Shown here: positions 26,144 to 55,121 of the stretch, piece after piece
Numbering within the stretch: the first letter of the stretch is position 1
Layout of the letters: each line of letters begins with the position of its first letter
Source of the DNA: an uncultured Verrucomicrobiota bacterium
GTDB lineage: Bacteria > Verrucomicrobiota > Verrucomicrobiia > Palsa-1439
Assembly: GCA_964541945.1 (NCBI GenBank)
Contig: CAZISE010000016.1
Coordinates: 20,484-84,483 of the forward strand
Reading direction: 5' to 3'
Length of the DNA stretch: 64,000 nucleotides
Made by a program: the position numbers and the translations under genes
Notes under the pieces: model-generated
Databases searched by the model: none
Seen by the model: the letters and a program-made list of their open reading frames with translations, nothing else
What the model was told of the DNA's origin: nothing

Positions 26144-26144
26144 C

Positions 26145-33291: not shown

Positions 33292-34406
33292 TGCACCTCG
33301 TCGCGCTCTCCCAGGATGGCCTGGGTCAGGTGGCGAATGTGGGTTTGAAGAAAGTCAAACGCCGTTTCGTAGGCAGCGCGCACGGTTTCGGCGTCGCCGG
33401 TGACCTTCGCCGGGTCCACCACGTGCCATTCGAGGCCGACGGTTTTGGTAGGGGCGGAAGGGAAAAGTTTGCGCGCTTCGCGGCAGAGGCCAATGACCAC
33501 CTGTGCCTGATCCAGGTCGCCGATTTCGTCCACCGACCGCGGCGTGTGTCCGGAGACATCCATCCCTTTGGAACGCATGAATTCAATCATTTGCGGGTTG
33601 AGCTGGCCGGCCACCAATCCGGCGCTGGTAAAGCGGAAGCGTTCCTGACCCAGGGAGCGGGCAATCGCCTCGGCCATGACGCTGAGGCAGGTGTTGCTTT
33701 CACCAATGAAAACGACGTGAAACGACTCCATGGGCCGATGTTTCTGATATTCGCCGGTGGCGTAGTACAGCGCTTCTTCGCAGATGTTGTAGGCCTGGTC
33801 GGCAGCGCGCTCAAAACGACGGGCCACCGCCAGCAGTGGCGCCAGCTCGGTCAATGTGGGGGAGACAGGCCCCAACAGGCGGGTCAACTCCTGATTGATC
33901 TGGTTTCGCAGGGCATCGGCCTGATCCTCGCCGACCATGGTGGCGCGGGCCAGGTCGGCGTCTTTTTCCAGAAAGGCGCGGACGGCATTGCGCACCATGG
34001 GGATGACCAGATTGGCCATTTGTTCGAATTTGTCGCGGGGAATCCCCTGGGGCAGGGTATTGAGTTGCAAAGCCTGACGCGCCACGCTTTCGGCGTAATC
34101 GCCGATGCGTTCGAGTTCCTTGATGATTTTGCTGGTCGAATAGACGAATCGTAAGATGCCGGCGGCGGGCTGGTAGCGGACCAGAAATTCCAGGCAGAGA
34201 CGGTCGAGTTCGGTTTCCAACTCGTCCACGCGACGGTCGCGCAGGATGACGGTGTAAGCCAGTTGCCGGTCGAGGGAGAGGACGGCCTGCAACGAGCTGC
34301 GCAGAGCCTGCTCGTCGAGTTCTTCCATGGCCTGCAATTTGGCGCGGATGGCGGCCAGGTCGTGTTCAAGGCTGGCTTCCAAATGAAGTGGCTGTGGGGT
34401 ATTCAC
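33288..34406 (-). CDS. PhoU domain fused to an LMW-phosphatase/ArsC-like domain with a degenerate P-loop
   Basis: The N-terminal ~215 aa have two PhoU repeats (..KELERIGDYAESVA.. and ..RRFERAADQAYNICE..). The C-terminal ~150 aa align to LMWP/ArsC (VVFIGESNTCLSVMAEA, SAG, WHVVDP). The nucleophile Cys and the Arg of CX5R are replaced (G...L). GTG 34406 has AAGGA upstream. Its stop overlaps the pstS start (ATGA 33288-33291). Confidence 0.8.
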   Translation of the reverse strand: MNTPQPLHLEASLEHDLAAIRAKLQAMEELDEQALRSSLQAVLSLDRQLAYTVILRDRRVDELETELDRLCLEFLVRYQPAAGILRFVYSTSKIIKELERIGDYAESVARQALQLNTLPQGIPRDKFEQMANLVIPMVRNAVRAFLEKDADLARATMVGEDQADALRNQINQELTRLLGPVSPTLTELAPLLAVARRFERAADQAYNICEEALYYATGEYQKHRPMESFHVVFIGESNTCLSVMAEAIARSLGQERFRFTSAGLVAGQLNPQMIEFMRSKGMDVSGHTPRSVDEIGDLDQAQVVIGLCREARKLFPSAPTKTVGLEWHVVDPAKVTGDAETVRAAYETAFDFLQTHIRHLTQAILGERDEVQ

Positions 34407-38785: not shown

Positions 38786-38930
38786 TCCAAATCCGAATGC
38801 CGAAGCGCAAACCACGAAACAAATCCGAATGCCCAAAATCCCAAGTCCCAAACAACCGCACCGCCGCCCCGTTTCGGCATTCGAATTTCGCGCTTGTTTC
38901 GCGCTTCGGATTTCGTGCTGCGAATTTCAT
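38786..38930. repeat. repeat-rich intercistronic element between long pstC and long pstA
   Basis: Direct copies of AAATCCGAATGCC at 38789-38801 and 38821-38833. Inverted copies at GGCATTCGAATTT (38876-38888), CTTCGGATTT (38904-38913) and GCGAATTT (38920-38927). CCGAAGCGC (38800-38808) is complementary to GCGCTTCGG (38901-38909). Together these can form a long imperfect hairpin around a C-rich ~40-nt loop. Confidence 0.6.
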
Positions 38931-41242
38931 AACTGGAATGCCCTCTTGCGGAACCGCTGTCGGATCACCTCGGCTGCGGTGTTGAGAAGGAAGGTCATCA
39001 CAAACAACGTCAGCGCCGCCAGAAACAGCATCCGATACAGCGTGCTGTCTTTCACGGCCTCCGGCAGTTCGACGGCGATGTTGGCCGAGAGTGCCCGCAG
39101 GCCGTTAAAAATGTTCCAGTCCATCAGTGGCGTGTTGCCGGCGGCCATGACGACAATCATCGTTTCGCCAACCGCCCGCCCCAGGCCGATCATGCACGCG
39201 GAAAAGATACCGGACATTGCCACCGGCACGATCACGCGGATGGCTGTCTGCCACGGCGTGGCACCACAGGCAAGCGAGGCCGACCGCAAATGCTCCGGCA
39301 CGCTGGACAGGGCATCCTCGGAAATCGTGTAGATGATCGGGATGACCGCAAACCCCATCACGAAACCGACCACGAGCGTGTTGCGTTGCACATAAGGACC
39401 GATGCGGGCGTTGAGCCATGCTTTGAAATCGCCGGCAAACAGGACCGTTTCAACCGGCCCGCTCAACACGACGGCCAGCCAGACCGCGACCGGTGCAAGC
39501 GCCAACACCAGGAGGAACTGCGCCCCGCCGGGCACACGCGCCCGCCAGCGGGCCGGCAACCATTGCCACGAAAAACCGCCCGCCAACAACACGCACGGGA
39601 GAAACGCGAACGTCAACAGCACCGCCACGATCCAGTTTTCCACCACCGGGGCGAGCACCAGCGCGGCAATGAATCCGAGCACGACGCTCGGCAGTGAGGC
39701 CATCGTTTCGATGGCGGATTTGATCGGCGCCCGTAGGCGCGGGTCAAGGAATTGCGACGTGTAAATCGCTCCGAGCAACGCGATCGGCACGGCGAACAGC
39801 ATCGAGTAAATCGTCGCTTTCAACGTGCCGAACACGAGCGGCACGAGCGAGAATTTCGGCTCAAAATCGTCGTTGGCCGACGACGATTGCCAGGTGTAGT
39901 CCGGGTGGTCATAGCCTTCGTACCAGACCTTGCCGAAGATCGTGCCCCATGTCGTTTCCGGGTGCGGATTGCGAACGTTCCAGCGATACGCTCGCCCGTC
40001 CGCATCGAGCGCAAACAGGCCGTCGCCCTTGGGCGTGAGATGAACCGCCACGACCCGGTCGGACGCGACCGTCGGGCGCGCCGGGGTTGTTTCTCCTTCA
40101 CGGACGCCCCGTCGGTTTGTTGTCACCTTTCCCAACACCTGCCGGCTGGTCATGTGGCGCAACCAAATTTCGCCGTTGACGGCACCGGTCACGAGGCATT
40201 TGTCGCGGGTGGACATGTCGGCGGCGCTGACGGCGGCGGTGTGCGCATCGAGTTTGTGTGCCGCAACCAGACGATAGCCGTCGGCCGTGCCCGATTCGGG
40301 ACGATGGACGCGGAACCAGGCGGTCACGCCGCCGTGGGAATCGCCGGCAATCACGGATTGATCGCCGAACATGAACTGAAGCCGGGTCAGTTCGATGCCG
40401 GGCGTTGGCGTGAAATCGGCGGTCTCGGCAATGACCGGCGCGGCGATGTCGCGCAGGTCGTAGCGTTGCACGGTGCCGTCGCGCCAAGCGAGATAAACCT
40501 GGTCGCCCTGTGTGTTTTGTAGAAGGTAATCGGGCAGATCGGCTCGTCCGGCAGGCGGACGGTAGGGCAGGTCGTGTTTGGTGAGTTTGGTGGTGATTTT
40601 GCCGGTGAGGATGTTTTCGCGATGGGTAACCTCGTCCCAAAAGAGTTCGCCATTGGCCTTGAGTACAGTGAGCACCGAACGATTGTCGCTGGGTTTGTAA
40701 TCGAGCCGGTGAACGGCCACGCCCGGTTTGCCGACCAACAGCGGGTCTTCAAGCGCGGCTTCCACGCCGTCGGCGGTGAACCGCAGGCGGCCAAGTCGGA
40801 CGGTGCCGTCGGCGAATCCGAGCGCGATGTGACCGCCGCGCAAGGTGCGGGCAAACGCCGTGATGCCGGTGGCGAGGAGTTGTTCGGAGACAATTTTGCC
40901 GGTGGGCGCGTCAAAAACGGTGAGTCGGCCCTGTCGGTCAAGGACGAATCCGTGTTGTTGATGTTCATCGAGCTGAACGGCCCAAAGTTGGTTGGCCCGG
41001 TCGGGGTCGAGCAGCCGGTAGCTGCCGGCGGCGGTAATTTGGGCCCCGCGAAAGAGCGGGACGACAACCGAGACGAGATAGACGAGGATGCCAATGACCG
41101 CCACGATGACCATAATGCCGCCGGTGGTGATGCCCCAAGTGGTCAGTTTGTCCACAACGCGGACGGCCCGGCTGGTTTGCCGGGCGCGCGGGCGGGCCAT
41201 CGGCGCGGCGGGCGGCGGGGTTGTTTCAGTGGCGGCTGGCAT
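38927..41242 (-). CDS. pstC: long-form phosphate ABC transporter permease PstC (771 aa) with a large N-terminal repeat-containing extracytoplasmic domain
   Basis: The C-terminal ~300 aa are a PstC core (ISEDALSSVPEHLRSASLACGATPWQTAI). After one TM helix (WGITTGGIMVIVAVIGILVYLV) come ~430 aa with recurring beta-propeller-like blades (GFADGTVRLGRL, WRDGTVQRYDL, GDSHGGVTAWFRV, GAVNGEIWLRHM, LDADGRAYRWNV). Confidence 0.85.
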   Translation of the reverse strand: MPAATETTPPPAAPMARPRARQTSRAVRVVDKLTTWGITTGGIMVIVAVIGILVYLVSVVVPLFRGAQITAAGSYRLLDPDRANQLWAVQLDEHQQHGFVLDRQGRLTVFDAPTGKIVSEQLLATGITAFARTLRGGHIALGFADGTVRLGRLRFTADGVEAALEDPLLVGKPGVAVHRLDYKPSDNRSVLTVLKANGELFWDEVTHRENILTGKITTKLTKHDLPYRPPAGRADLPDYLLQNTQGDQVYLAWRDGTVQRYDLRDIAAPVIAETADFTPTPGIELTRLQFMFGDQSVIAGDSHGGVTAWFRVHRPESGTADGYRLVAAHKLDAHTAAVSAADMSTRDKCLVTGAVNGEIWLRHMTSRQVLGKVTTNRRGVREGETTPARPTVASDRVVAVHLTPKGDGLFALDADGRAYRWNVRNPHPETTWGTIFGKVWYEGYDHPDYTWQSSSANDDFEPKFSLVPLVFGTLKATIYSMLFAVPIALLGAIYTSQFLDPRLRAPIKSAIETMASLPSVVLGFIAALVLAPVVENWIVAVLLTFAFLPCVLLAGGFSWQWLPARWRARVPGGAQFLLVLALAPVAVWLAVVLSGPVETVLFAGDFKAWLNARIGPYVQRNTLVVGFVMGFAVIPIIYTISEDALSSVPEHLRSASLACGATPWQTAIRVIVPVAMSGIFSACMIGLGRAVGETMIVVMAAGNTPLMDWNIFNGLRALSANIAVELPEAVKDSTLYRMLFLAALTLFVMTFLLNTAAEVIRQRFRKRAFQL

Positions 41243-43987: not shown

Positions 43988-44026
43988 CGTGACAGCCAAA
44001 GGACGGAATTGTTACGAAATCGTGAA
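43988..44026 (-). promoter_or_regulatory. candidate Pho-box-like phased hexamers upstream of the porin gene
   Basis: Plus strand: GTGACA (43988), AGGACG (43999), GTTACG (44010), GTGAAG (44021). In sense order this is CTTCAC-CGTAAC-CGTCCT-TGTCAC at 11-bp phasing, ending 87 nt before ATG 43900. Confidence 0.45.
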
Positions 44027-44077
44027 GATGCGAACGCGCTCGCGGGACGCCAAGGGCAACGAAAAGGCGCGAAACAG

Positions 44078-44686
44078 TTACCGCGCAGGAACCGTCTTGT
44101 CGTTGAGAAGATCGAATTCGACCGGGCAGGCAAACACCGCCTCAAACAGGCCGCGCTTGCGGGAGGCGCCCTCGATGTGCAGCCCGGCCTCAGCGGTGGC
44201 GCGGACACGAATAAGGACGTGCCGGTCGGTGATTTGGCAGGCAATCGCGCTCACCCATTGCAGGTGTGGCCGGTCCAGGCCGTCGGCCAGGCGCAACAAC
44301 GCCGCCAGCTTCTGAATGCGACGCCGGGTTGGTTCGGGCTGAGCGGCGAAATCCTCGTGTTCGACGGATGGCTCGGATTTGCGATGATACCGCGCCACGA
44401 GCGCGAGTTGTTCGATTTCTGACGGGTTGAAACCGGGCAGTTTGGCGGCGTTGAGACGGATCAGGTCGGCGCTGTGTTTGTGGTGTTTCTTGCCGGTGAC
44501 AGTCCAACCGATATCGTGAAGCAGGGCGGCGGCTTCGAGGAGGTCGCGCTCGGGGGCGCCAAGCTGATGGAGCGGCTGAAGCTGGTCGAACAACGCGAGC
44601 GCCAGGTCGCGCACTTTGCGGGCGTGTTCGATTTCCCAGCCGTAGGCCGCCAGCAATTGTTCGGCTGCCGCAATGCGCGGGTTCAT
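44078..44686 (-). CDS. stand-alone HD-domain protein resembling the C-terminal half of Ppx/GppA
   Basis: LLHDIGW......HHKHS..LI and LALVARYHRK....D plus LLRLADGLD, which is the HD region pattern of Ppx/GppA phosphatases. There is no N-terminal actin-like domain. The start overlaps the ROK stop (ATGA 44683-44686). Confidence 0.7.
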   Translation of the reverse strand: MNPRIAAAEQLLAAYGWEIEHARKVRDLALALFDQLQPLHQLGAPERDLLEAAALLHDIGWTVTGKKHHKHSADLIRLNAAKLPGFNPSEIEQLALVARYHRKSEPSVEHEDFAAQPEPTRRRIQKLAALLRLADGLDRPHLQWVSAIACQITDRHVLIRVRATAEAGLHIEGASRKRGLFEAVFACPVEFDLLNDKTVPAR

Positions 44687-45672
44687 TGAGCCAGGGTGCG
44701 CGCCGCCAGGGCGCCGCCGAGGACGCCGGCATCGTCACCAAGACCGCTGTCGAGGATGCGAACGCGCTCATCGGTGGCGCCGATGACGTGCGACCATGCA
44801 GCCCGGCGAATACGCGGCAACATTTTCTTGCCCAACGCCTCGATGAGGCCGCCGCCGAGGATGACGGCTTGCGGGTTCAAGACGTTGATGAGATTGGCGG
44901 CGCCGATGCCGATGTAGTGGCAGGCGTCGTCCACGATTTCCCGCACCAGTTTGTCGCCCTCCAAATAGGCTTCGGCAATGATGCGGCTCCGAATCCGTCG
45001 CGTGTCGCCATCGCAGAGGTCGCGCACGACGCTCTTGCGGCCGTTGTTCATTTCCTCGATGACACGCCGCACAATGGCGCCGCGGCTGGCCACGGCCTCC
45101 AAACACCCGCGGTTGCCGCAGCCGCATTTCGGGCCGCCCTGGGCAATGACGGCCATGTGCCCGATTTCGCCGCCCATGCCGGCAGAGCCGCGATATTGTC
45201 GTCCGCCGATGACGATGCCGCCACCGATGCCGGTGCCGATGAACATGCAGACGAAATCCTGCAACCGGCGTCCCGCGCCGAACTGTTGAACGGCCATGGT
45301 GCCGGCCTGCACGTCGTTGACGACGACCACGGGGATGTGGATACGAGCTTTCAGGAGGCGGGCAAACGGGAACTCTTGCCAGCGAAGATTTGGGGCCACG
45401 CGGACGATGCCGGTGCGGGTGTTGACCATGCCGGGGATGCCGACGCCAACAGCAGCAACGGCGGCGTGCGGTACGGCGGCCAGCGCGAGGGCTTCGTTGA
45501 GGCACTCGGCGATGCGGCTGACGACCGCTTCGGGGCCGAGGTCGGGTTTGGTGGATTTTTTCTCGCGGGCGAGGATGCGATATTGGGCGTCAAAGACGGC
45601 CGCAAGAATCTTGGTGCCGCCGAGGTCCACGCCGACGGCAAACGTTTTTTCGTCGGATCGTTTCATCACCAT
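44683..45672 (-). CDS. ROK-family sugar kinase (glucokinase-like)
   Basis: VGVDLGGTKI, GIGIPG, NDV.AG, GTGIGGGIV, and the zinc motif GHM......GP.CGCGN.GCLE. Confidence 0.85.
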   Translation of the reverse strand: MVMKRSDEKTFAVGVDLGGTKILAAVFDAQYRILAREKKSTKPDLGPEAVVSRIAECLNEALALAAVPHAAVAAVGVGIPGMVNTRTGIVRVAPNLRWQEFPFARLLKARIHIPVVVVNDVQAGTMAVQQFGAGRRLQDFVCMFIGTGIGGGIVIGGRQYRGSAGMGGEIGHMAVIAQGGPKCGCGNRGCLEAVASRGAIVRRVIEEMNNGRKSVVRDLCDGDTRRIRSRIIAEAYLEGDKLVREIVDDACHYIGIGAANLINVLNPQAVILGGGLIEALGKKMLPRIRRAAWSHVIGATDERVRILDSGLGDDAGVLGGALAARTLAQ

Positions 45673-45959
45673 TGTTCCACGGTTTCGGTGAGCCGTTTGA
45701 TGAGTTTGTCGAGCGCTTTTAGGTCGCGCCGTCGTCCTTTGTGCGGTTTGAGGTCGAGTTTGTTGATCCAGTCGGACATCCGCCGCAACTCGGCCATTCG
45801 TCGGGGACTTGGTTCGACATCAGCCAGAGCGCGGTCCACGCGGGCGATGTCGGCCTGCAGGCCGGCGAGGTAGTTGCCGCCGACTTCCTTGACGAGGAGG
45901 CGCAGGGTTTGCAGGGAAGCGGAAAGTCGGCGCTGGCGGTTGTGGAATCGGGCGTTCAT
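45666..45959 (-). CDS. 97-aa basic, helical hypothetical protein
   Basis: ORF locked into the operon by overlaps at both ends (ATGA 45956-45959; ATGGTGA at 45666-45672). No family recognised. Confidence 0.5.
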   Translation of the reverse strand: MNARFHNRQRRLSASLQTLRLLVKEVGGNYLAGLQADIARVDRALADVEPSPRRMAELRRMSDWINKLDLKPHKGRRRDLKALDKLIKRLTETVEQW

Positions 45960-46666
45960 GGGGTGTAGGCGAGGATTTCCTGGACGCGGTTGCGCAGTTC
46001 GTTGTGGATGGCGCGCGGTTTGCGGTTGCCGTTGATGACGGTGAATCCGTATTCGGCCTGCATTCGGCGGAACTCGGCCTGGATGAGCCGTTGGTATTTC
46101 ATGAAGCTCTCGAACATGTCGCGGGACAGGCCGATGTCCATGCCGCTTTCCCAGTAGTTGAGGGTGGCGTTTTTGCGGAAGTTGCGTTCGACGAGGATTT
46201 GGGGGCTGACGCGCAGGTAAAACACGACGTCCGGTTTCAGGGCAATGGAGTACAGTGATCGGACCCAGGCGCGGTCGGCACCGCGCACGATGTCGCGGGC
46301 CATGAGGGTGTAGATGTAGCGGTCGGCCAGCACGACAAAGCCGGCCCGCAGGGCGGGGATGATGTTGTTTTCCAATTGGTCGGCAAAGTCGGTCGCGTAA
46401 AAGAGGCTTCGGGTGGTGTGGCCGAGGATGTTGCCCTGCTGGGCTTGTTCGAGTTCGTCGGCGACCAGGGTGCTGCGTTTCAAGCCGACATTGATGGTGC
46501 CGTAGCCGAGATTTTCCAGCCAGTTTCGGAGCATGTCAATCTGCGTGGAACGGCCGGAACCGTCGGCGCCTTCGAGCACGATGAGTTTGCCTTTCAGCTT
46601 GGAGAAATCGCAACCGGGCAGTTGTGTGCCGAAATGTTGTTTGCCGATGGGGCGCGTTGTTTTCAT
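45956..46666 (-). CDS. thymidylate-kinase-like P-loop protein with Walker-A Lys replaced by Arg
   Basis: IVLEGADGSGRSTQ (GK[ST] becomes GRS), VLADRYIYT (DRY motif). ATG 46666 is preceded by GGAGAGGGAA and overlaps the upstream stop (ATGA 46663-46666). Confidence 0.75.
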   Translation of the reverse strand: MKTTRPIGKQHFGTQLPGCDFSKLKGKLIVLEGADGSGRSTQIDMLRNWLENLGYGTINVGLKRSTLVADELEQAQQGNILGHTTRSLFYATDFADQLENNIIPALRAGFVVLADRYIYTLMARDIVRGADRAWVRSLYSIALKPDVVFYLRVSPQILVERNFRKNATLNYWESGMDIGLSRDMFESFMKYQRLIQAEFRRMQAEYGFTVINGNRKPRAIHNELRNRVQEILAYTP

Positions 46667-47343
46667 TGTTTCCCTCTCCAACGGAAGGATGGCAGGTCAA
46701 TTTTTTGCTCGACGTATTTGCGAACCATGGCCTGTTGTTTCTCGATGGGCAACATGCCGTCCATCACCATGAAACCTTCCGGCTCGATCATCTTCTTGTA
46801 TTCGGCGTAGATGCGTCCCTGAAAAATCTTGAAGCTCTCGTATTCGTTGTCGGCGAGGTTCAGGTCCATGCCCGCCTCGAAATACTTCAGTTTCGGTCGT
46901 CCGCTCAAAATCCTGTCCAGCGACACCGCCAGCGGGGTGTCAAAGAAAAACGTGATGTCCGGCACGACGGCGAAACTGTAAAGGTTGCGGACCCATTGCG
47001 GGTCGCAGCCGCGGACGATGTCACGCGCAAAGGCGGTGTACATGTAGCGGTCGGCCAGCACGATGTAGCCCGCCCGCATCAGGGGCAGAATCTGTCGCTC
47101 GAACCGGTCGGCAAAATCCGTCGCGTGCACCAGCGAGAATGTCGTGGGCGTCAGCAATTGGCGTTTCTTGCCTTTGCGGGTGGCATCCTTGACGAGCACG
47201 GATGAGTTCCATTCCGTGAAGAAGACCTTCAGGCTCTGCATTTCCATCCAGCGTTTCAGCAGATACACTTGCGTGGACTTGCCGGAACCATCCAGCCCTT
47301 CCACGGCGATCAGTCGGCCCGGATAATTGTGTTTGCTAATCAT
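46663..47343 (-). CDS. thymidylate-kinase-like P-loop protein (canonical Walker A)
   Basis: IAVEGLDGSGKSTQ, VLADRYMYT. Paralogous along its whole length to 45956..46666 (e.g. HATDFADRFERQILP.MRAGY vs YATDFADQLENNIIPALRAGF; YFEAGMD vs YWESGMD). Confidence 0.75.
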   Translation of the reverse strand: MISKHNYPGRLIAVEGLDGSGKSTQVYLLKRWMEMQSLKVFFTEWNSSVLVKDATRKGKKRQLLTPTTFSLVHATDFADRFERQILPLMRAGYIVLADRYMYTAFARDIVRGCDPQWVRNLYSFAVVPDITFFFDTPLAVSLDRILSGRPKLKYFEAGMDLNLADNEYESFKIFQGRIYAEYKKMIEPEGFMVMDGMLPIEKQQAMVRKYVEQKIDLPSFRWRGKQ

Positions 47344-48034
47344 GCTCCCACTTCACTTTCTTGACCCAATGCCGACGGTCGTCAAGTAACTTCCGCACCG
47401 CGGCCCATCGGCGTTTGTGTTCCTTTTTGAAATGTTCCCGCAGCGTCCCCGGCGGCAACTCCTTCAACAGGGTTTCCACATCATGACAGGCGCCCATCAA
47501 TTCTTGCAACCGTTTTAGCGGTTTGACCGGTTTTGTCGCCCCCGCGATTTCCAGGCCGTAACGATATTTTTTTACCGCAATCCGCAGGCGATGGAAGGCC
47601 GCGCGGCTCTCTTTTTTCTCAAACTGCCGCAGACGTTTTTCCATCGTCTGCCGTAATCGCTCCAGCACGCGATGCGCATCCACCGGACGCTGCTGCCACA
47701 CGACGGGGTTCATCCTCCGATACAACCGTTGCAGCTCTGCCAGGCGCCGCCGCCGCTCCTGCGCGAATCGCCGTTCCAGCACCGGACATCGCTGCGGCGC
47801 GTCCCGCAACAACGCCCGATGAACATCCAGCGCCCGCACCGCCCCCAATGCGCGACCCAGCCGACGCAATTCGGGCGGGCAACGAACTCCGAAAAAACGC
47901 AGTCCGGCCCGCAACCGGCGCGAGGCCACGCGCATCCGGTGAACCGTCTCCGCATTGTCAAAATCCGGCGATGGCAGGAACAGCCGTCGCGTTTGTTTGC
48001 GAAGACGGTTTGCGATTTGTGAAGTCAGGTTCAT
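47336..48034 (-). CDS. CHAD-domain protein
   Basis: VHRMRVASRRLRAGLRFF and FHRLRIAVKKYRYGLE are the repeated CHAD helix signatures. Overlaps on both sides (ATGA 48031-48034; 8 nt at 47336-47343). Confidence 0.8.
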   Translation of the reverse strand: MNLTSQIANRLRKQTRRLFLPSPDFDNAETVHRMRVASRRLRAGLRFFGVRCPPELRRLGRALGAVRALDVHRALLRDAPQRCPVLERRFAQERRRRLAELQRLYRRMNPVVWQQRPVDAHRVLERLRQTMEKRLRQFEKKESRAAFHRLRIAVKKYRYGLEIAGATKPVKPLKRLQELMGACHDVETLLKELPPGTLREHFKKEHKRRWAAVRKLLDDRRHWVKKVKWEHD

Positions 48035-48423
48035 GGTTCCTGTCCTGCCCGGCGCAAGAGTACAACCACGCGCGCCAACAGTTCCCGCATCTCAAATGGT
48101 TTTGTCAGGTAATCATCCGCCCCCACCTGAAAACCTTCAAGTTTGTTTTCTGTCGTGGCCATGGCCGTCAACATCAACACCGGGATTTGGCGCAACGGAC
48201 TGGCCTTCAACAGCCGACAAACCTCCAGCCCGTTCATCTGCGGCATCATGCGATCCAGAATCACCAGCGCCGGCTTGCGTTCAAACACGGCATTGAGCGC
48301 GGCGACGCCATTGCGGACAATGATCGCGGCATAGCCCCGACGCCTCAGATGATAGGCTATCAAACGGGCCGTATCGGCTTCGTCCTCGGCCACGAGAACC
48401 AACGGCGCGTTCGCGTTGCTCAT
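48031..48423 (-). CDS. single-domain response regulator (CheY-like receiver)
   Basis: VLVAEDE, ILDRMMPQMNG, LTAM, ADDYLTKPF. 130 aa with no output domain. Start reset to ATG 48423, which overlaps the upstream stop (ATGA 48420-48423). Confidence 0.85.
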   Translation of the reverse strand: MSNANAPLVLVAEDEADTARLIAYHLRRRGYAAIIVRNGVAALNAVFERKPALVILDRMMPQMNGLEVCRLLKASPLRQIPVLMLTAMATTENKLEGFQVGADDYLTKPFEMRELLARVVVLLRRAGQEP

Positions 48424-49175
48424 GACACCATTCGCTCCGGCTGCAAAACGGCTGTCGTACGATGAGTTTGCCATCGAATCAGTTCGATCCGACCATCGTA
48501 ATCCTCCACCAGCGCCGAACGGCTTTCCACCCAATCGCCGCAATTGTAGTAGGAAATCCCGCGGATGATCGCCACCGCCGGGGTGTGAATGTGTCCGCAA
48601 ATCACCCCGTCCGCATGATGCAACTCGGCATAGCGTGCCAGCGCGTCTTGAAACCGCCCGATGAAACTGACCGCCTCTTTCACATAGGCGCTGAGCGACC
48701 AATAGCCGAGTCCCAACGTGTTGCGAATGAAATTCAGCGGGAGATTCGCCTTCAACAGCGCCATGTAACCCAAATCTCCCAGATGCGCCAGCCATTTGGC
48801 ATGCGTGATCACCGTGTCCAACTCGTGGCCGTGCATCACCAATAACCGCCGCCCATCGGCGGCGGTGTAGAGGTCGCGCGGCTTGATGACGACATTTCCA
48901 TATGCGCCAACAAAATGCGCGCAAAACTCGTCGTGGTTACCCGGAACCCAGATCACCTCCGTCCCTTTCCGCGCTTTGCGCAGAAGCTTCTGGATCACGT
49001 CATTGTGCGATTGCGGCCAGTACCGGTTCCGCCGCAAATGCCACAAATCCACAATGTCACCCACCAAATACAACCGCTCGAACTCGTTGAGCTTCAGAAA
49101 CTCCAGCACCCCGGCGGCATCGCAATGGCGCGTGCCCAGATGCAGATCGGATATCCATGCCGTTTTGCAGTTCAT
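48420..49175 (-). CDS. LpxH-like calcineurin-type metallophosphoesterase
   Basis: ISDLHLG, LVGDIVD, PGNHDE, MHGHE, GHIH, GDW: the full metallophosphoesterase motif series, in the arrangement seen in the UDP-2,3-diacylglucosamine-hydrolase-like family. Confidence 0.8.
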   Translation of the reverse strand: MNCKTAWISDLHLGTRHCDAAGVLEFLKLNEFERLYLVGDIVDLWHLRRNRYWPQSHNDVIQKLLRKARKGTEVIWVPGNHDEFCAHFVGAYGNVVIKPRDLYTAADGRRLLVMHGHELDTVITHAKWLAHLGDLGYMALLKANLPLNFIRNTLGLGYWSLSAYVKEAVSFIGRFQDALARYAELHHADGVICGHIHTPAVAIIRGISYYNCGDWVESRSALVEDYDGRIELIRWQTHRTTAVLQPERMVS

Positions 49176-49211
49176 GCGGCCAACAACGTGCGTTCCGATA
49201 TTGTCGGACAG

Positions 49212-49239
49212 TTGACAATCTTGTTACAGACTCGTGAAC
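49212..49239 (-). promoter_or_regulatory. candidate Pho-box-like phased hexamers upstream of the 8-gene operon
   Basis: In sense orientation: GTTCAC (49239-49234), TGTAAC (49228-49223), TGTCAA (49217-49212) at 11-bp phasing, ending 36 nt before ATG 49175. Caveat: on the plus strand 49212-49217 reads TTGACA and could instead be a -35 box for the divergent Rieske gene. Confidence 0.4.
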
Positions 49240-49277: not shown

Positions 49278-49586
49278 ATGAGCGAATGGATCCATGCCGC
49301 CAAAACCGGCGACCTCAAACCCGGTGAAGCCAAAATCATCGCTGCCGGCGACCGCGAAATCGCCCTGTTCAACGTGAACGGCCAATTCCACGCCATTGAC
49401 AACATCTGCCCGCACCGCGGCGGCCCGCTCGGCGACGGTGTTCTCGAAGGGAACGTTGTCATCTGTCCGTGGCACGGCTGGCGGTTCGATGTCACCAACG
49501 GCAAATCACCGGTGATGCCGGTGGTGTCCGTGGAGAAATTTGAGGTCGCCGTCGAAGGCGACGACGTGAAAGTGAAGGTGAACTGA
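49278..49586 (+). CDS. small Rieske [2Fe-2S] protein (NirD-like)
   Basis: CPHRGGPL ... CPWHGWRF are the Rieske ligand motifs. 102 aa. Start reset to ATG 49278. Confidence 0.85.
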   Translation: MSEWIHAAKTGDLKPGEAKIIAAGDREIALFNVNGQFHAIDNICPHRGGPLGDGVLEGNVVICPWHGWRFDVTNGKSPVMPVVSVEKFEVAVEGDDVKVKVN

Positions 49587-49587
49587 C

Positions 49588-49875
49588 ATGCCCCTGAAAT
49601 CCGCTTGGGAACTGGCACTGGAACGCACCGGCGGGGCCAGCACCGCCAAACTCACCGATGCCCAAAAAGCGAAGCTGGCCGAGCTGGACAAACTTTACAC
49701 GGCCAAAATCGCGCAGGAAGAACTCACGCTCAAACCGAAGATTGCCGAGGCTCGTGCCGCCGGCGACGATGAGAAAGCCCAAAAACTCGAAGAACAACTT
49801 CAAACCGCTCTTGCCCGGCTGCGCCGCAAACTGGAGGAAGAGAAGGAAGCCGTCCGAAAGGAGAAAACGGTGTGA
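49588..49875 (+). CDS. 95-aa Lys/Glu/Ala-rich coiled-coil hypothetical protein
   Basis: ORF begins 2 nt after the Rieske stop and overlaps the queC start (GTGA). No family recognised. Confidence 0.45.
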   Translation: MPLKSAWELALERTGGASTAKLTDAQKAKLAELDKLYTAKIAQEELTLKPKIAEARAAGDDEKAQKLEEQLQTALARLRRKLEEEKEAVRKEKTV

Positions 49876-50573
49876 CACACGCGAGGTCACGCGAAAGCGT
49901 GTCCCTTCGACAGCGGCAGGTTGCGCTTCCGAGCGAGCGGGGTTCCGTCTGCGTCCTTGTCAGCGGTGGTCTCGACAGTTGCGTCATGCTGGCCGAACTG
50001 GCAAACCGCCATGTGGTTTATCCTTTGTACGTGCGTCATGGTTTGCGCTGGGAACAAGCCGAGCTATCCCATCTCCGACGTTTCCTGCGCGCGCTGCCCG
50101 TTCCCCGTTTTCCGCTGCATGCGTTGACGGTGCTGCATTTGCCAGCACGTAATTTGTACGGCCCGCATTGGAGTCTGAACGGCAAGGGTGTTCCCGGAAG
50201 AGCATCCCGCGATGAGGCCGTGTATCTGCCAGGACGCAATCTGTTGTTGTTGGCGATGGCCTCGGTCTTCTGTGCGGTACGCGGCATTCGCACAATCGCC
50301 ATCGGCACACTGCGCGGCAACCCGTTTGCCGATGCCACGCCGGTGTTTTTCCGGCAGTTCGCCACGTTGGCTGTTCGGGCATTACACTTTTCTGAGACGA
50401 TCGTCTCACCGTTTTGTAATCTTTCCAAGGAACAGGTCATCCAACGGGGTCGTCAATTGCCGTTGCATCTGACCTTTTCCTGCCTCAACCCGCAACGCGG
50501 TCGCCCGTGCGGTCGCTGCAACAAATGCGCCGAACGCCAGCGCGCCTTTCAATCGGCGGCACAAAAACGGTAG
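49872..50573 (+). CDS. queC: 7-cyano-7-deazaguanine synthase (QueC/ExsB family)
   Basis: PP-loop VLVSGGLDS, YLPGRN, and the C-terminal zinc cluster C......C..C..C (CLNPQRGRPCGRCNKC). Start uncertain (GTG 49872). Confidence 0.75.
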   Translation: MTHARSRESVSLRQRQVALPSERGSVCVLVSGGLDSCVMLAELANRHVVYPLYVRHGLRWEQAELSHLRRFLRALPVPRFPLHALTVLHLPARNLYGPHWSLNGKGVPGRASRDEAVYLPGRNLLLLAMASVFCAVRGIRTIAIGTLRGNPFADATPVFFRQFATLAVRALHFSETIVSPFCNLSKEQVIQRGRQLPLHLTFSCLNPQRGRPCGRCNKCAERQRAFQSAAQKR

Positions 50574-51226
50574 CCTATCCCCGGTTCCGTCCTGATCAGT
50601 TTGCGTCCGGCGCCGGGTTCGAGTTTCTGGCGCAGGTGCGTGACATAGACGCGCAGGTATTGCGACTGTTCCTCGGCATGCGGCCCCCAGACGACGCGCA
50701 AGAGGTGTTTGTGAGTGACAACCTTGCCAGCGTGTCGGACCAATTCACGCAGCAGCGCGTACTCCGTGGCCGTCAGATGAACGTCCTGTCCTTTCACCGT
50801 GACGACACGAGCCGCGAGATCAACCGTTAGATCGCCGACCACCACGACTGGTTCCTCGTTCGCTTCTGGCGCGCGACGCTGAATAGCGCGCAACCGGGCA
50901 AGCAGTTCCGCCGTGCTGAACGGCTTGGTGAGATAATCATCGGCACCGTTGTCGAGCGCAGCGACCTTGTCCGCCTCGCCCTCGCGCACCGAGAGCACGA
51001 GCACGGGCGTCTGGTTCCACTCGCGCAAACGTTTCAACACCGTTTGCCCATCCATGTCCGGCAGACCGAGATCGAGAATGATCACATCGGGGCGTCGCAC
51101 AGCGGCCTCCTGAAGGCCGAGTTGCCCGGTTTCAGCCTCGAAGACCTGATACCCCTGCGGTTCAAGCGTCAACCGCAACAGCCGCCGGATCGGCGGCTCG
51201 TCGTCAACAATCAGCACGGTTTTCAT
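50549..51226 (-). CDS. kdpE: OmpR-family response regulator, KdpE-like
   Basis: VLIVDDEP.IRR.LR..L...GY, ILDLGLPDMDG, VLSVR, ADDYLTKPF..ELLARLRA. ATGA overlap with the kinase stop. Confidence 0.8.
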   Translation of the reverse strand: MKTVLIVDDEPPIRRLLRLTLEPQGYQVFEAETGQLGLQEAAVRRPDVIILDLGLPDMDGQTVLKRLREWNQTPVLVLSVREGEADKVAALDNGADDYLTKPFSTAELLARLRAIQRRAPEANEEPVVVVGDLTVDLAARVVTVKGQDVHLTATEYALLRELVRHAGKVVTHKHLLRVVWGPHAEEQSQYLRVYVTHLRQKLEPGAGRKLIRTEPGIGYRFCAAD

Positions 51227-52599
51227 GTGGCAAGTGGAATAAAAATGGTGAAGGTGACGCCTTCACCAAGGTTGTTTGTAGCGGACACCACGCCGCGGTG
51301 GGCGTTGACGAATCCCTTGACGATGGAAAGCCCCAAACCGACTCCACCGGATCGCGCGCCTTTGCCGCGATAGAATTTGTCGAACACTTTTGTCTCTTCG
51401 CCGGGCGTTAATCCGCTGCCGGCATCCGTCACGCGAAGCACCAACTGCCCTTCGCGTATTTCCGCGCTCAATCGGATGAGCGACCTGGCCGGGCTGTGCT
51501 GAGCGGCATTCAGGAGCAGGTTGCAGAGTGCTTGTTCCATCAACCCGAAATCCAGTTGCACCAGCGGCAGGCCGTCGGCGACAGTGATGTTCACCCGTTC
51601 GGGCGAAATCTCGTTTTGCAGTTGCTCGACCGCCGACTCCAACAGGTCGCGCACGTCGCACCATTCCGGGCGAAACGGGAGTTGGCCGGACTCGATCCGG
51701 GTCATGTCGAGCAGGTTCGAAACAATCCGTTCCAACCGGCGATTGGCCGCGGTAATTTCGTTGAGGAATGTTCCCGCCAACGGCGGTGCGCCATCGGCCA
51801 GTTGTGTCGCAAGGCCATCGGTCGCAGTGCGGATGACAGCCAACGGTGTTTTCAACTCGTGCGACACCGAGTCGAGCAGCGTGCGGTGAAGCCGTTCCGA
51901 CTCCTGGGCCAACTGCGTTTGCCGTGCCACGGCCAGCAGTTGTTGGCGTTCGACAAAGGCGGCAATCTGGCTGGCGAATGTCTCCAGCAATTCGCATTCG
52001 CTGGGCGCCAACACCCGGTTTCCTTTCAATTCTACACCCATCCAGCCCACGCGCCCGTTGGCCGTCTGCAGCGGCAGGCACAACGATGTTGTCGGCGCCG
52101 TTTCCTCCAACAAGATTCGAGTCTGGACCTGAAACAATGCGTTCACTTCTTCTACGGCCCGCGCGAGTCCGTCCGCCAGCGAGTCGCTCACGGCCAATCC
52201 CTGCAACAACCGGTTGAGCGCGGCGGTGCGTTGTTCACGGCGTCGCTCCGATTCCTCGCGCCGGCGCAACTGGTTGGTCATGTGCCCCATCACCAGCGCG
52301 ACGACGAAGTACATGCTGAACATCATCACGTCCTCCGTCGCTTCGATGTGGAAGGTGAATTGCGGCGGTATAAACAGGAAATCCCATAGCACGGCACTCA
52401 ACGCCGCCGCCAACAGAACTGCCCAGCGGTTCAGTTTCAGCGCCAAGAATACCACCGTGAGCAGATACACCAACGAAATCGCCCAGTAGCCGGTAACAGT
52501 GCGCAGCATCAGCGCCAACCCGGTTACCGCCGCGACTGCCAGCACGCCCCAGCCACAATGACGAAGTATCTGTTTGGCCAACGAGACGTCCATGCACAC
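51223..52599 (-). CDS. KdpD-type sensor histidine kinase lacking the N-terminal KdpD/Usp modules (DUF4118-HisKA-HATPase)
   Basis: An N-terminal four-helix membrane block like KdpD DUF4118 (ISLVYLLTVVFLAL...VLWDFLFIPP.FTF), then SHELKTPL, NLLLNAAQHS, DAGSGL, GVGLGLSIV. Start is GTG 52599 or ATG 52593. Confidence 0.8.
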   Translation of the reverse strand: MCMDVSLAKQILRHCGWGVLAVAAVTGLALMLRTVTGYWAISLVYLLTVVFLALKLNRWAVLLAAALSAVLWDFLFIPPQFTFHIEATEDVMMFSMYFVVALVMGHMTNQLRRREESERRREQRTAALNRLLQGLAVSDSLADGLARAVEEVNALFQVQTRILLEETAPTTSLCLPLQTANGRVGWMGVELKGNRVLAPSECELLETFASQIAAFVERQQLLAVARQTQLAQESERLHRTLLDSVSHELKTPLAVIRTATDGLATQLADGAPPLAGTFLNEITAANRRLERIVSNLLDMTRIESGQLPFRPEWCDVRDLLESAVEQLQNEISPERVNITVADGLPLVQLDFGLMEQALCNLLLNAAQHSPARSLIRLSAEIREGQLVLRVTDAGSGLTPGEETKVFDKFYRGKGARSGGVGLGLSIVKGFVNAHRGVVSATNNLGEGVTFTIFIPLAT

Positions 52600-52602
52600 A
52601 CT

Positions 52603-54630
52603 TTACATGATATTGGCCGCCCGTGCCGAGCGCTGAAGTCGGACCGGCAAAATCACCACCGGCACCCCGGCGAAACGGAGCCGACGTTGAATGGCGTAAG
52701 CGGTGTCGTTGTGTAGAAGACGATCAAACCAGCGCGGCTCGTCAAACACCACCTCGCCGGCGAAAAAGACGCCTCGCGCGTATTGCTGGTGAAGTTCAAG
52801 GCACAATTTGGAAACCTCCTCGACCACATCGGTTCCGATGCGATACGCGGAACGGGCCGGGATGCCCAGCTTGCCGGCGTGTTCGACGTACCGCGCCAGA
52901 TTGTCCTTCGTGTGTTGCTCCAACGCCGCCATTTGCTCTTCGCCCTTGAACAGTTCAGAGTCAATGACGCCCACCGAGACGAAGACAACATTGCGGAACG
53001 TCTCCGGGAACAGGCGAAAGATCGTCAGCAAACAATGGATGCCCAACCGCGCGTAGCCGCCGACGAGAATCAAGGCCGTCGGTTTCCGGGGATCGAAATC
53101 GCGGATCGGTTTGGATGATTCCGCTGGGATGTCTTCGAGCGTCTGTTCGACGGCGCGGACCCGCTGCCCAACGTTGTGGTAGTGCCGGCGGATCAGCAGG
53201 CAGATGCCGATGCACAGACAGGTGATCGTCAGCGTGATCCAGCCGCCTTCCTTGAATTTCATCGTCAACATCACACACAGGATCAAAAAACACAGCAGCA
53301 GCCCGGTGGCGTGGATCGGCAGATGTCGTTTCCAGTCCGATTTTGTTTTGCGGTGACGAATCCAGAACCGCACCATGCCGGTTTCCGACAACGAGAACGT
53401 TGCGAACACGTTGATGCTATACATGACGACCAGGATGCCGATGTTGCCCCGCGTGTATGCCAGTGCCGCCGCCGCCGCCAAGCTGATGAGCAGGACGCCG
53501 TTTTGCACCGTCAGGCGGTCGGACAACGACGCGAACCGACGGGGCAGCCAGTTGTCAATCGCCATGTTCGCCATCACCCGCGGGCCGTCAATGAAACCCG
53601 TTTGCGCCGCTACCAGCAACAGCACCGCCTCTGAGAACATCGTCACTGCCGCAAACCACCGGCCCACCGGCCACGACCCGATATGAAACCCGCCGGCGAA
53701 CTGATCCACAAGCACTGCATTCAATGTCCGCCCCTCAATCGGCTGCACGCGAAACAGCAGATAACAGAGGATCAACCCACACGCTGTCAACGCGAGCGAG
53801 AGAGCCATGTAGGTCATTGTGCGTTTGCCGGTCTCGACTTTCGGGTCGCGCATGATGGCAACGCCGTTGGACACCGCCTCGATGCCCGTGTACGTGCCGC
53901 CGCCGAGCGAATAGGCGCGCAGAAACAACAGGAACATTCCCCACCCGCCGAGTTGCGCGAGGCCGCTGCGAAAACCACCGGCCACGTTGCCCGCCACCGC
54001 TGGCACCTCGCCCAAATGCCGGATGATTCCGCCCACGATCAGGATGGCGTGCGTCACCATGAACGCCAGGAAAATCGGCACCAGTGGCGCGACCGATTCT
54101 TTCACACCGCGCAGATTCATGATCATGAGAAACAGAATCGCGCCAAACTCCACCGGCAACTTATACGGCTGCCATGCCAACGGCAACACGCTGAAGATGG
54201 CGTCGCCCCCGCCGGCGATGGAAACGGTAATTGTCAGCACGTAATCCACCAGCAACGCGCAACCCGACACGACGCCGGCGGGTTTGCCCAACAGTTCCGT
54301 GGACACAACGTAGCCGCCGCCGCCGTGCGGGAAATGCTCGATGATCCGACTGTAGGCGTAGGAAATGATGAACACTGTCGCTGCCGATGCCACCGCCAAC
54401 AACACGGCAAGATACGTGTGCGTGCCCAGTTGCCGGTAAGCTTCCTCCGGGCCGTAGGCCGACGATGACAAGCCGTCCGCGCCCAACCCAACCCACGCTA
54501 GGAAAGCAATCAACGAAATCTTGTGTAGGATCGCTGCGTCTTTCAGGTCGCGTGGCCGCCCTAACAAGAGTTGCCGCACGTGCGCCCATGTTCCCTGCGG
54601 CAGATGAAATTGTGTATGCGTTGTACTCAT
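52603..54630 (-). CDS. APC-superfamily transporter closely resembling the KimA (YdaO) K+/H+ symporter family, with a C-terminal cytoplasmic domain
   Basis: Block-by-block resemblance to my memory of B. subtilis KimA: LLLGRP, SSSAYGPEE, FPHGGGGYVVS, LLVDYVLTITVSIAGG.DAI, MNLRGVKES, TGIEAVSNG, and a ~190-aa soluble tail. ATG 54630 overlaps the Usp stop (ATGA). Confidence 0.7.
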   Translation of the reverse strand: MSTTHTQFHLPQGTWAHVRQLLLGRPRDLKDAAILHKISLIAFLAWVGLGADGLSSSAYGPEEAYRQLGTHTYLAVLLAVASAATVFIISYAYSRIIEHFPHGGGGYVVSTELLGKPAGVVSGCALLVDYVLTITVSIAGGGDAIFSVLPLAWQPYKLPVEFGAILFLMIMNLRGVKESVAPLVPIFLAFMVTHAILIVGGIIRHLGEVPAVAGNVAGGFRSGLAQLGGWGMFLLFLRAYSLGGGTYTGIEAVSNGVAIMRDPKVETGKRTMTYMALSLALTACGLILCYLLFRVQPIEGRTLNAVLVDQFAGGFHIGSWPVGRWFAAVTMFSEAVLLLVAAQTGFIDGPRVMANMAIDNWLPRRFASLSDRLTVQNGVLLISLAAAAALAYTRGNIGILVVMYSINVFATFSLSETGMVRFWIRHRKTKSDWKRHLPIHATGLLLCFLILCVMLTMKFKEGGWITLTITCLCIGICLLIRRHYHNVGQRVRAVEQTLEDIPAESSKPIRDFDPRKPTALILVGGYARLGIHCLLTIFRLFPETFRNVVFVSVGVIDSELFKGEEQMAALEQHTKDNLARYVEHAGKLGIPARSAYRIGTDVVEEVSKLCLELHQQYARGVFFAGEVVFDEPRWFDRLLHNDTAYAIQRRLRFAGVPVVILPVRLQRSARAANIM

Positions 54631-55121
54631 GCATTTGGGAATCTGCGCCGACTGGACCCGACCACCAACACCGGACAAGGCGCCTCACGCAACACGTGTG
54701 CCACCGTCCGTGGGTGTAGAAAACACAGCCATTCTGTGTGACGATGGCTGGCCATGACGATGAGATCGGCGCCGAGCTTTCGGGCTTGATCAAGAATTTC
54801 CTCATGGGGATGTCCTTCGACAATTACCAAGCGGACAGGACGGTCGCTTTTGCACAGCGTCGCCAGCGAACGCTGAAGTTGGATGCGCGCCTCCTCTCCC
54901 AATTGATGGAGCAGACGAGTACGGGGAATGCCGAGTTCCTCACCGCCGATATTAAGCTGTACCACGTGCAACACCGTGATCGAAGCGTTCAGCGTCTGTG
55001 CCAATTCCACTGTGTACTGCAACGCTCCGATGGACTCGAACGACAAATCCACCGGCGCGAGAATCCGCTGCAAATGAAACTGCGCCGGTTTGGAGTTCTG
55101 CATGGTGGTGTCGTTGCTCAT
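54627..55121 (-). CDS. universal stress protein (UspA family)
   Basis: ILAPVD.S, ..VLHVV, GADLIVM.SH, VAHVLREAPCPVLVV. Start uncertain (ATG 55121 or GTG 55136). Confidence 0.8.
   Translation of the reverse strand: MSNDTTMQNSKPAQFHLQRILAPVDLSFESIGALQYTVELAQTLNASITVLHVVQLNIGGEELGIPRTRLLHQLGEEARIQLQRSLATLCKSDRPVRLVIVEGHPHEEILDQARKLGADLIVMASHRHTEWLCFLHPRTVAHVLREAPCPVLVVGSSRRRFPNA

Follow-up and report, generated by a model that had tools for sequence, protein, structure and literature searches.

A putatively Pho-controlled operon of an uncultured Verrucomicrobiota bacterium combines predicted PPK3 subunits with a probable PlcP-type phosphoesterase

Gene organization of the operon

We analysed a stretch of 64,000 nucleotides (the window) of contig CAZISE010000016.1 from an uncultured Verrucomicrobiota bacterium, in which eight consecutive genes run along the minus strand from position 49175 to position 44078 (Table 1). 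In order of transcription, they encode a metallophosphoesterase, a receiver protein, a CHAD protein, two paralogues of the thymidylate kinase (Tmk) fold designated TmkA and TmkB, a protein of 97 amino acids (aa), a ROK kinase and an HD protein that corresponds to domain III of PPX/GppA exopolyphosphatases. At all seven junctions the stop codon of one gene overlaps the start codon of the next. Five of these overlaps are of the type ATGA (48423-20, 48034-31, 46666-63, 45959-56 and 44686-83), the CHAD/TmkA junction (47343-36) is formed by the overlap ATGATTAG, and the junction between the genes for the 97-aa protein and the ROK kinase (45672-66) by ATGGTGA. A first-pass annotation of the window had described this arrangement; re-reading of the minus strand reproduces it, and an independent gene caller returned the same eight genes from the public contig, which is identical in the operon region. 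We judge seven overlaps in a row to be far beyond chance for unlinked genes, an estimate by reasoning rather than a computed statistic.

Profile searches against Pfam confirmed every domain call of that annotation and gave no match for the 97-aa protein. The nearest relatives are Verrucomicrobia metagenome-assembled genomes (MAGs). Downstream lies, as described before, a porin-pst operon, of which the Porin_5 porin, PstS and a PstC homologue of 771 aa were identified by Pfam. A weak terminator-like hairpin spans the stop codon of the last gene; it is suggestive only, the total count of such sites in the window being not above shuffle expectation. Together with a Pho-box-like array that belongs to the porin gene itself, this hairpin makes it probable that the eight genes form a transcription unit separate from porin-pst. 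Neither the called genes nor the major open reading frames (ORFs) of the window contain a PPK1 or PPK2 domain, in agreement with the first reading. A PADLOC scan of the eight proteins for defence systems gave weak generic matches (best PDC-M51B, 5e-8, in the P-loop region), and a defence-system reading was rejected.

Table 1 Operon genes and regulatory features of the window
Feature	Coordinates	Strand	Remarks
Pho-box-like array, 11-bp phase	49201..49239	-	GTTCAC-N5-TGTAAC-N5-TGTCAA, then TGTCCG; before the operon
Metallophosphoesterase gene, 251 aa	48420..49175	-	Metallophos 2.5e-9
Receiver gene, 130 aa	48031..48423	-	Response_reg 1.4e-26
CHAD gene, 232 aa	47336..48034	-	CHAD PF05235 1.8e-19
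TmkA (cPPK3-like), 226 aa	46663..47343	-	Thymidylate_kin (PF02223) 8e-20
TmkB (rPPK3-like), 236 aa	45956..46666	-	Thymidylate_kin (PF02223) 6e-21
97-aa protein gene (family named S97 here)	45666..45959	-	No Pfam match
ROK kinase, 329 aa	44683..45672	-	ROK 1.5e-68
PPX/GppA domain-III HD protein, 202 aa	44078..44686	-	Ppx-GppA_III/HD (PF21447) 1.7e-27
Weak terminator-like hairpin	44067..44086	-	Across stop codon of last gene; suggestive only
Second Pho-box-like array	43989..44027	-	CTTCAC-N5-CGTAAC-N5-CGTCCT-N5-TGTCAC; before porin-pstS
Perfect triple	36786-36759		TGTCAC-N5-TGTCAC-N5-TGTCAC; before pstB
Array, two repeats	29011-28995		Before PhoR-like kinase (27175-28980)
Array	25504-25477		Before PhoU_div-PHO4

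A predicted bacterial PPK3 pair

Polyphosphate kinase 3 (PPK3) of Sulfolobus acidocaldarius (SaPPK3) consists of the catalytic subunit cPPK3 (Saci_2019) and the non-catalytic activator rPPK3 (Saci_2020), which is encoded by the neighbouring gene; dTMP kinase activity is absent from both (Hofmann et al., JBC 2026, PMC12995831; preprint 2024, bioRxiv 10.1101/2024.08.28.610084). TmkA matches the structures of STK_15430 from Sulfurisphaera tokodaii (PDB 2plr/5h70), a homologue of Saci_2019 (PMC12995831), at 4.4e-63 and 216 bits, compared to at most 57 bits (~1e-14) for canonical Tmk structures, and TmkB matches the same chain at 5e-47. The alignment of TmkA with Saci_2019 yields 47% identity and common GSGKS, TEWNSS and DRY motifs as well as a K-K-K/R patch before LLTP. 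GSGKST, DRY and a KGKKR basic patch are invariant among TmkA orthologues, and the TREPGG and SSxAYQ motifs of Thermus thermophilus Tmk are replaced in TmkA by TEWNSS and YTAFAR. In a neighbour-joining tree, Saci_2019 clusters with the bacterial TmkA proteins.

TmkB shares 30% identity with Saci_2020. Both contain ADQxEN and G[LI]xxSxL[VM]AD and have lost the basic patch, a combination not found in cPPK3 sequences. The Walker A motif reads GSGR[ST], with arginine in place of lysine, in 78 of 80 bacterial TmkB orthologues, whereas DRY is present in all 80 and is replaced by DGY in Saci_2020; loss of this DRX arginine accounts for the inactivity of archaeal rPPK3 (PMC12995831). By these comparisons, TmkA and TmkB are orthologues of heteromeric PPK3, TmkA as its predicted catalytic and TmkB as its second subunit, and TmkB is probably a Tmk-fold paralogue without catalysis. 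The combination of a retained DRY arginine with a Walker-A lysine-to-arginine exchange in the bacterial second subunit appears to be new. An earlier hint that the Tmk-fold proteins resemble PPK2 was thus essentially right, with PPK3 as the actual relative. In one Verrucomicrobiae MAG (L027:4955-6044), the TmkB gene is split over several frames, as a pseudogene or by assembly error.

The likeness extends to the locus. In the S. acidocaldarius operon, which we retrieved as sixA-ppx-saci_2019-saci_2020-CHAD, the neighbouring genes for the two Tmk-fold paralogues are ordered as in the window. P-loop, DRY and basic patch of the archaeal catalytic subunit are intact in TmkA, the second subunit has diverged and lost the patch as in TmkB, and the window operon likewise includes a CHAD gene and a gene derived from PPX. 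The PPK3 clade is described as mainly bacterial, with PPX, SixA, CHAD, NUDIX and PstS/C as neighbours (PMC12995831), and the window PPK3 genes have Pst genes nearby, as do these predicted bacterial loci. Differences include the following: (i) bacterial TmkB keeps the DRX arginine and instead carries the Walker-A exchange, unlike archaeal rPPK3; (ii) the window operon lacks SixA and the PPX catalytic domain, retaining domain III only; and (iii) its PPK3 module is linked, behind a Pho box, to a receiver gene and a PlcP-like gene. CHAD is a polyphosphate (polyP)-binding helical domain, and PPK3 has CHAD genes beside it in Sulfolobus and Geobacter-type loci as well.

The two Tmk-like proteins are publicly annotated as dTMP kinases, and their scores of 80.5 and 84.0 with the dTMP kinase model TIGR00041 fall on either side of its cut-off (83.25). 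They might accordingly be ordinary dTMP kinases next to an ordinary glucokinase, with the clustering of CHAD and HD genes being incidental. We regard this as highly improbable: Saci_2019 makes polyP and neither archaeal homologue phosphorylates dTMP (PMC12995831), the TREPGG and AYQ motifs are replaced, TmkB carries the Walker-A arginine, and PPX, CHAD and SixA genes accompany the pair in different phyla. A third Tmk is not encoded within the window.

We determined the distribution of the system by scanning one genome per GTDB species for cPPK3-specific peptide patterns. At least 574 bacterial species genomes match, and the matches listed include Verrucomicrobiota, Sumerlaeota, Desulfobacterota/Geobacter, Acidobacteriota, Latescibacterota, KSB1, Chloroflexota and others; the abstract of the PPK3 paper (PMC12995831) speaks of 'a few bacteria'. 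Neighbourhoods were compared for 82 bacterial loci (80 fetched and two obtained earlier). TmkA directly followed by TmkB is invariant in all of the more than 80 bacterial loci, and the order is the same in Sulfolobus. The ROK gene lies directly 3′ of PPK3 in 35 of the 82 loci, from several phyla, and a member of the 97-aa family follows the Tmk pair directly in 24. PPX or its catalytic half PpxN, including split PPX, is found within 3.5 kb of PPK3 in 24 loci, CHAD near PPK3 in 12 and SixA in eight.

Six architectures can be distinguished. Five species of the window clade (TmkA identity ≥85%) have, with bracketed genes variable, metallophosphoesterase-[receiver]-CHAD-TmkA-TmkB-97aa-ROK-[HD]-(porin-pst) (architecture A), and many Verrucomicrobia have TmkA-TmkB-ROK-PpxN(-HD) (B). 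TmkA-TmkB-97aa-PpxN-HD contains a split PPX, as checked with Pfam (C), the Geobacter type reads SixA-TmkA-TmkB-97aa-CHAD-PPX (D), Sumerlaeota and others have TmkA-TmkB-97aa-ROK (E), and the Tmk pair also occurs alone (F). Split PPX genes, one for the catalytic ASKHA half and one for the HD half with domain III, are frequent beside bacterial PPK3 (L017:11729-13283, L166:5382-6952, L167:5371-6869, L168:6373-7904). In one bacterial lineage, genes for AP_endonuc_2 (xylose-isomerase-like TIM barrel) and LPG_synthase_TM proteins recur just 5′ of PPK3 (L017:9070-9915; L166:2582-3415; L167:2666-3490; L168:2638-3483; L002:5886-6779).

The polyP core is therefore widely conserved, while the eight-gene order is confined to a narrow Verrucomicrobia clade, being complete in L004 and mostly retained in L005-L008. 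The first-pass annotation had proposed that all eight products form one dedicated phosphate-transfer machine gated by the orphan receiver, a proposal for which the seven overlapping junctions, arguing for co-translation, and the gene order in these relatives speak. It did not hold up against the comparison of loci and is very unlikely: the metallophosphoesterase family stands mostly beside GT4 glycosyltransferase genes and far from PPK3, the receiver gene is absent in L007 and has moved in L008, and ROK, 97-aa, CHAD and HD genes are each limited to part of the PPK3 loci. Since the components recombine across genomes, the eight genes represent a mosaic and not one fixed machine.

The 97-aa protein has no match in Pfam, NCBIfam or PADLOC. 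An exhaustive profile search collected 697 clusters at 50% identity for its family (S97), nearly all of them small stand-alone proteins, and every annotated member is called 'hypothetical' or obviously misnamed. The motif K-P-x-K-G-R-x-x-D is invariant in the family. An AF2 model built with database homologues predicts a three-helix bundle (mean pLDDT 87.9) with this motif in the loop connecting helices 2 and 3; a fold search of the model against the PDB gave nothing with E < 0.001 and returned a generic helical bundle only. That the protein is a fragment of CHAD was rejected at an hhalign probability of 0.7%. Even among distant members (~25% identity), three of three sampled stand directly after a Tmk pair, and the Sulfolobus PPK3 locus contains no S97 member. 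The 97-aa protein thus appears to found an unannotated family linked to PPK3, and we propose that it might serve as an accessory factor for PPK3 or polyP.

The ROK kinase and the HD protein

The ROK protein (PF00480, 231.9 bits; motifs DLGGT, GEIGH and CGCGNRGC in the translation) scores 224.9 with the glucokinase model TIGR00744, below the cut-off of 260.35, and the structures closest to it are those of the glucokinases 3vgk, 3vov and 2qm1. An identity as PPGK was rejected, with a score of 54.6 against a cut-off of 250 for NF045942 and 57.9 bits for PDB 1woq versus 170.5 for 3vgk. By its sequence, the protein is probably of the ATP-glucokinase type. The first-pass annotation had pointed out that some ROK-fold kinases use polyP; the window protein is not of the PPGK type, but its recurrent synteny with PPK3 argues for a functional link. 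This recurrent link appears to be new. PPGK, the polyP/ATP-glucomannokinases of Actinobacteria with ROK/ASKHA fold (e.g., PDB 1woq), likewise place a ROK-fold sugar kinase in a polyP context, and the net chemistry, glucose phosphorylation driven by polyP, would likely be the same. Unlike for PPGK, we propose that the window ROK is linked to polyP via ATP made by PPK3 and not by direct use of the polymer.

The HD protein aligns with residues 352-481 of the exopolyphosphatase 8jgo (7e-27), its HD...HHKH motif is intact, and this motif does not differ between stand-alone and fused HD proteins. It is a good match to domain III of Ppx/GppA, and relatives have a full or split PPX at its position. 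Unlike Ppx/GppA, it lacks the catalytic ASKHA domains I-II and is therefore predicted to be no conventional exopolyphosphatase. Relatives with ROK-PpxN-HD (L050, L056) or ROK-PPX-HD (L005) suggest that the window lineage has lost the PPX catalytic half from the operon.

The catalytic domains of PPX and the ROK proteins both belong to the ASKHA superfamily. This common membership, the ATGA overlap that couples the ROK and HD genes, the absence of a PpxN ORF from the window and the succession of PpxN and HD after the 97-aa gene in L017, L166 and L167 could all be accommodated if ROK and HD formed a split PPX-like enzyme, i.e., a two-subunit polyP-glucokinase that is independent of ATP and in which ROK would transfer the end phosphate of a polyP chain held by HD straight to glucose. 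Such an enzyme is improbable given that the score of the ROK protein with the PPGK model is far too low, that ATP-glucokinases are nearest to it, and that ROK and PpxN occur together in many loci (including L050, L056 and L005). Owing to this coexistence, ROK is unlikely to be a general replacement for PpxN, and the state of the window resembles PpxN loss.

A further reading treats bacterial PPK3 as a mechanistically distinct three-component enzyme that forms a metabolon with ROK and HD. Beside the catalytic TmkA, TmkB may then, owing to its Walker-A arginine and retained DRY, have a role unlike that of the 'dead' archaeal subunit, the 97-aa KPxKGR protein may be an obligatory subunit for polyP priming or tethering, and physical coupling to ROK (and HD) may channel polyP phosphate into sugars when phosphate or energy is short. 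We consider this elaboration speculative and on the whole unlikely.

Probable membrane phosphorus recovery under putative Pho control

All motifs of the metallophosphoesterase encoded by the first gene (DxH, GD, GNHD, HGH and GHxH) are invariant. Its similarity to LpxH is weak (46.9 bits against an equivalog cut-off of 134, and 42.4 against 190), and LpxH identity was rejected. With 50% identity and 233 bits, it matches a Sinorhizobium meliloti gene preceded by sinI, sinR and a gene for malic enzyme, the last of which we take to be dme (SMc00169). Given the locus tags SMc00168/SMc00170 of sinI/sinR (PMC5596199) and a 'phospholipase C SMc00171' named as a member of the S. meliloti Pho regulon (PMC3596328), the matched gene is most probably SMc00171 and thus the characterised PlcP, an identification from gene order. 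The sequence in which this order was read, CP090106.1 (L170; 3.7 Mb), is labelled 'plasmid pSymB' in PLSDB; it carries sinI/sinR and a frameshifted malic-enzyme gene and appears to be the S. meliloti chromosome.

The window protein is a probable phospholipase C of the PlcP type, which would convert membrane phospholipid to diacylglycerol under phosphate starvation. PlcP-Agt systems (S. meliloti SMc00171, SAR11, Phaeobacter, P. aeruginosa, Methylosinus), encoded by plcP-agt operons with Pho boxes, serve lipid remodelling under phosphate starvation (PMC4796936, PMC9239053). They likewise contain an LpxH-like metallophosphoesterase with all metal-binding motifs, the ~50% identity to the S. meliloti gene corresponds to the level among characterised PlcPs, and the window operon, too, is preceded by a matching Pho-box-like array. 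Unlike in PlcP-Agt, the window gene is followed by receiver, CHAD and PPK3 instead of a glycosyltransferase. A metagenome scan uncovered a large metallophosphoesterase family at ~50% identity, in which a GT4 glycosyltransferase gene lies directly 3′ in ~38 of the 59 loci with room for one (~2/3), matching the plcP-agt arrangement, where agt (GT4) serves the synthesis of lipids without phosphorus; only the closest relatives (≥63% identity) stand before CHAD-PPK3.

The 11-bp-phased, TGTCAC-like array before the operon, which the first-pass annotation had noticed, scores 31 and 30 and ends ~26-37 nt 5′ of the first start codon. Stringent phased arrays number six in the window, compared to 0.13 expected from shuffles. 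L004, L005, L007, L008 and L088 have an equivalent array 34-37 nt 5′ of the orthologue of the first gene, within surroundings whose sequence has diverged. Positions 25.5-44 kb of the window constitute one phosphate island with arrays before several units. Besides porin, pstS, pstC, pstA, pstB and phoU, it contains genes for a phoB-like regulator, a fusion of PhoU and LMWPc (33288-34406) and a phoR-like kinase, a further pstSCAB set in which pstB is present twice, and a pit-type transporter in a divergent PhoU_div-PHO4 pair (25517-27194). The perfect triple between pstA and pstB suggests an internal Pho promoter in the pst cluster. Putative Pho control of the operon, as derived from motif and island, is well supported in silico. 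In the PstC homologue (38927-41242), only the last ~250 residues match the permease domain, behind an N-terminal extension of ~500 residues.

Among NCBIfam models, the single-domain receiver protein scores best with that of the PhoB receiver (122.8 bits). Its identity amounts to 45% with the receiver of the PhoB-like regulator encoded in the window, compared to 38% for the neighbouring OmpR-type regulator, and the acidic pocket as well as the Asp, Thr and Lys positions are retained. As its loss and relocation among relatives illustrate, the receiver is dispensable there.

We thus read the locus, with a probability of about 0.7, as a Pho operon with one Pho-box promoter and two modules, one for membrane phosphorus recovery and one for polyP by PPK3. 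Upon phosphate limitation, the PhoB-like regulator would switch on the operon, and the PlcP-like enzyme would cleave membrane phospholipids to diacylglycerol, freeing phosphorus. The receiver, probably phosphorylated by the local PhoR, could act as a modulator or phosphate sink. By analogy with SaPPK3, a TmkA2-TmkB2 complex would interconvert ATP/ADP and polyP, with TmkB serving assembly and activation. Both CHAD and the domain-III HD protein would bind the polymer, assisted by the 97-aa protein, and ROK would spend ATP regenerated from polyP and ADP on glucose, resulting in a net transfer from polyP to glucose by an ADP/ATP shuttle. Of this picture, gene structure, family assignments, orthology to PPK3 and to the PlcP family, patterns of conservation and the Pho-box-like motif are observed, while enzyme activities, subunit roles, the relay from PPK3 to ROK, the net flux, the kinase partner of the receiver and induction under Pho control are inferred.

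The direction of this flux could also be the reverse, with Pho-induced PPK3 mainly building polyP ('overplus', as with Pho-regulated ppk1) and ROK being unrelated to polyP use. SaPPK3 is reversible and builds polyP at high ATP/ADP (PMC12995831); ppk is among the induced members of the S. meliloti Pho regulon (PMC3596328), and the operon adjoins high-affinity Pst uptake genes. The kinetics of SaPPK3, however, strongly favour formation of ATP from polyP and ADP, ADP inhibits synthesis (PMC12995831), and a neighbouring glucokinase would yield ADP and be expected to push toward polyP consumption. Net synthesis therefore seems a possible, if doubtful, alternative.

Several points weigh against the two-module Pho operon as we read it. 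PPK3 biochemistry is known for one archaeal enzyme, SaPPK3 (PMC12995831), and bacterial PPK3 is predicted here from sequence. Saci_2020 forms a long branch outside both bacterial clades of the tree, for which reason the orthology of TmkB and rPPK3 is based on gene position and common motifs, and with the DRX arginine kept, TmkB could be active or differ in role. ROK is missing from more than half of the PPK3 loci and resembles an ordinary ATP-glucokinase, and the PPX catalytic half (PF02541) is absent from the HD protein. In the PlcP module, the matched S. meliloti gene is unlabelled and no GT4/agt homologue is present within the window.

Comparison with the published system shows that the locus is a bacterial variant of PPK3 and nothing categorically new. 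The first-pass annotation had proposed an undescribed module for polyP and phosphate starvation. A polyP module in Pho context is what we find as well, but 'undescribed' was overtaken by the PPK3 work of 2024/2026, in which bacterial PPK3 operons with neighbouring CHAD, PPX and Pst genes were already predicted. The text of the PPK3 paper does not mention the 97-aa protein as a PPK3 neighbour, nor does the main text of either version mention ROK as one. Beyond that text go the Walker-A arginine of the second subunit, the 97-aa family, the ROK link, the split or truncated PPX and the joining of a plcP-like gene to the module under a Pho box.

PPK3 is widespread in Verrucomicrobiota and several other phyla, with many uncultured soil and freshwater lineages, and these bacteria provide targets for PPK3 biochemistry in which the second subunit would have degenerated by a different route. 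The 97-aa family and ROK recur as partners and could account for the priming, tethering or spending of polyP. The in silico placement of PPK3 in the Pho regulon, beside lipid remodelling and Pst uptake, bears on phosphorus cycling and enhanced biological phosphorus removal.

The other side of the operon carries genes at 49283-50573 on the plus strand and at 50549-54678 on the minus strand. Genes for a Rieske-domain protein, a lysine/glutamate-rich protein of 95 aa and QueC run divergently from the operon. They are followed by genes for an OmpR-type regulator, a histidine kinase of the DUF4118 (KdpD) type, a transporter of the amino-acid-permease family with 691 aa and a Usp protein.

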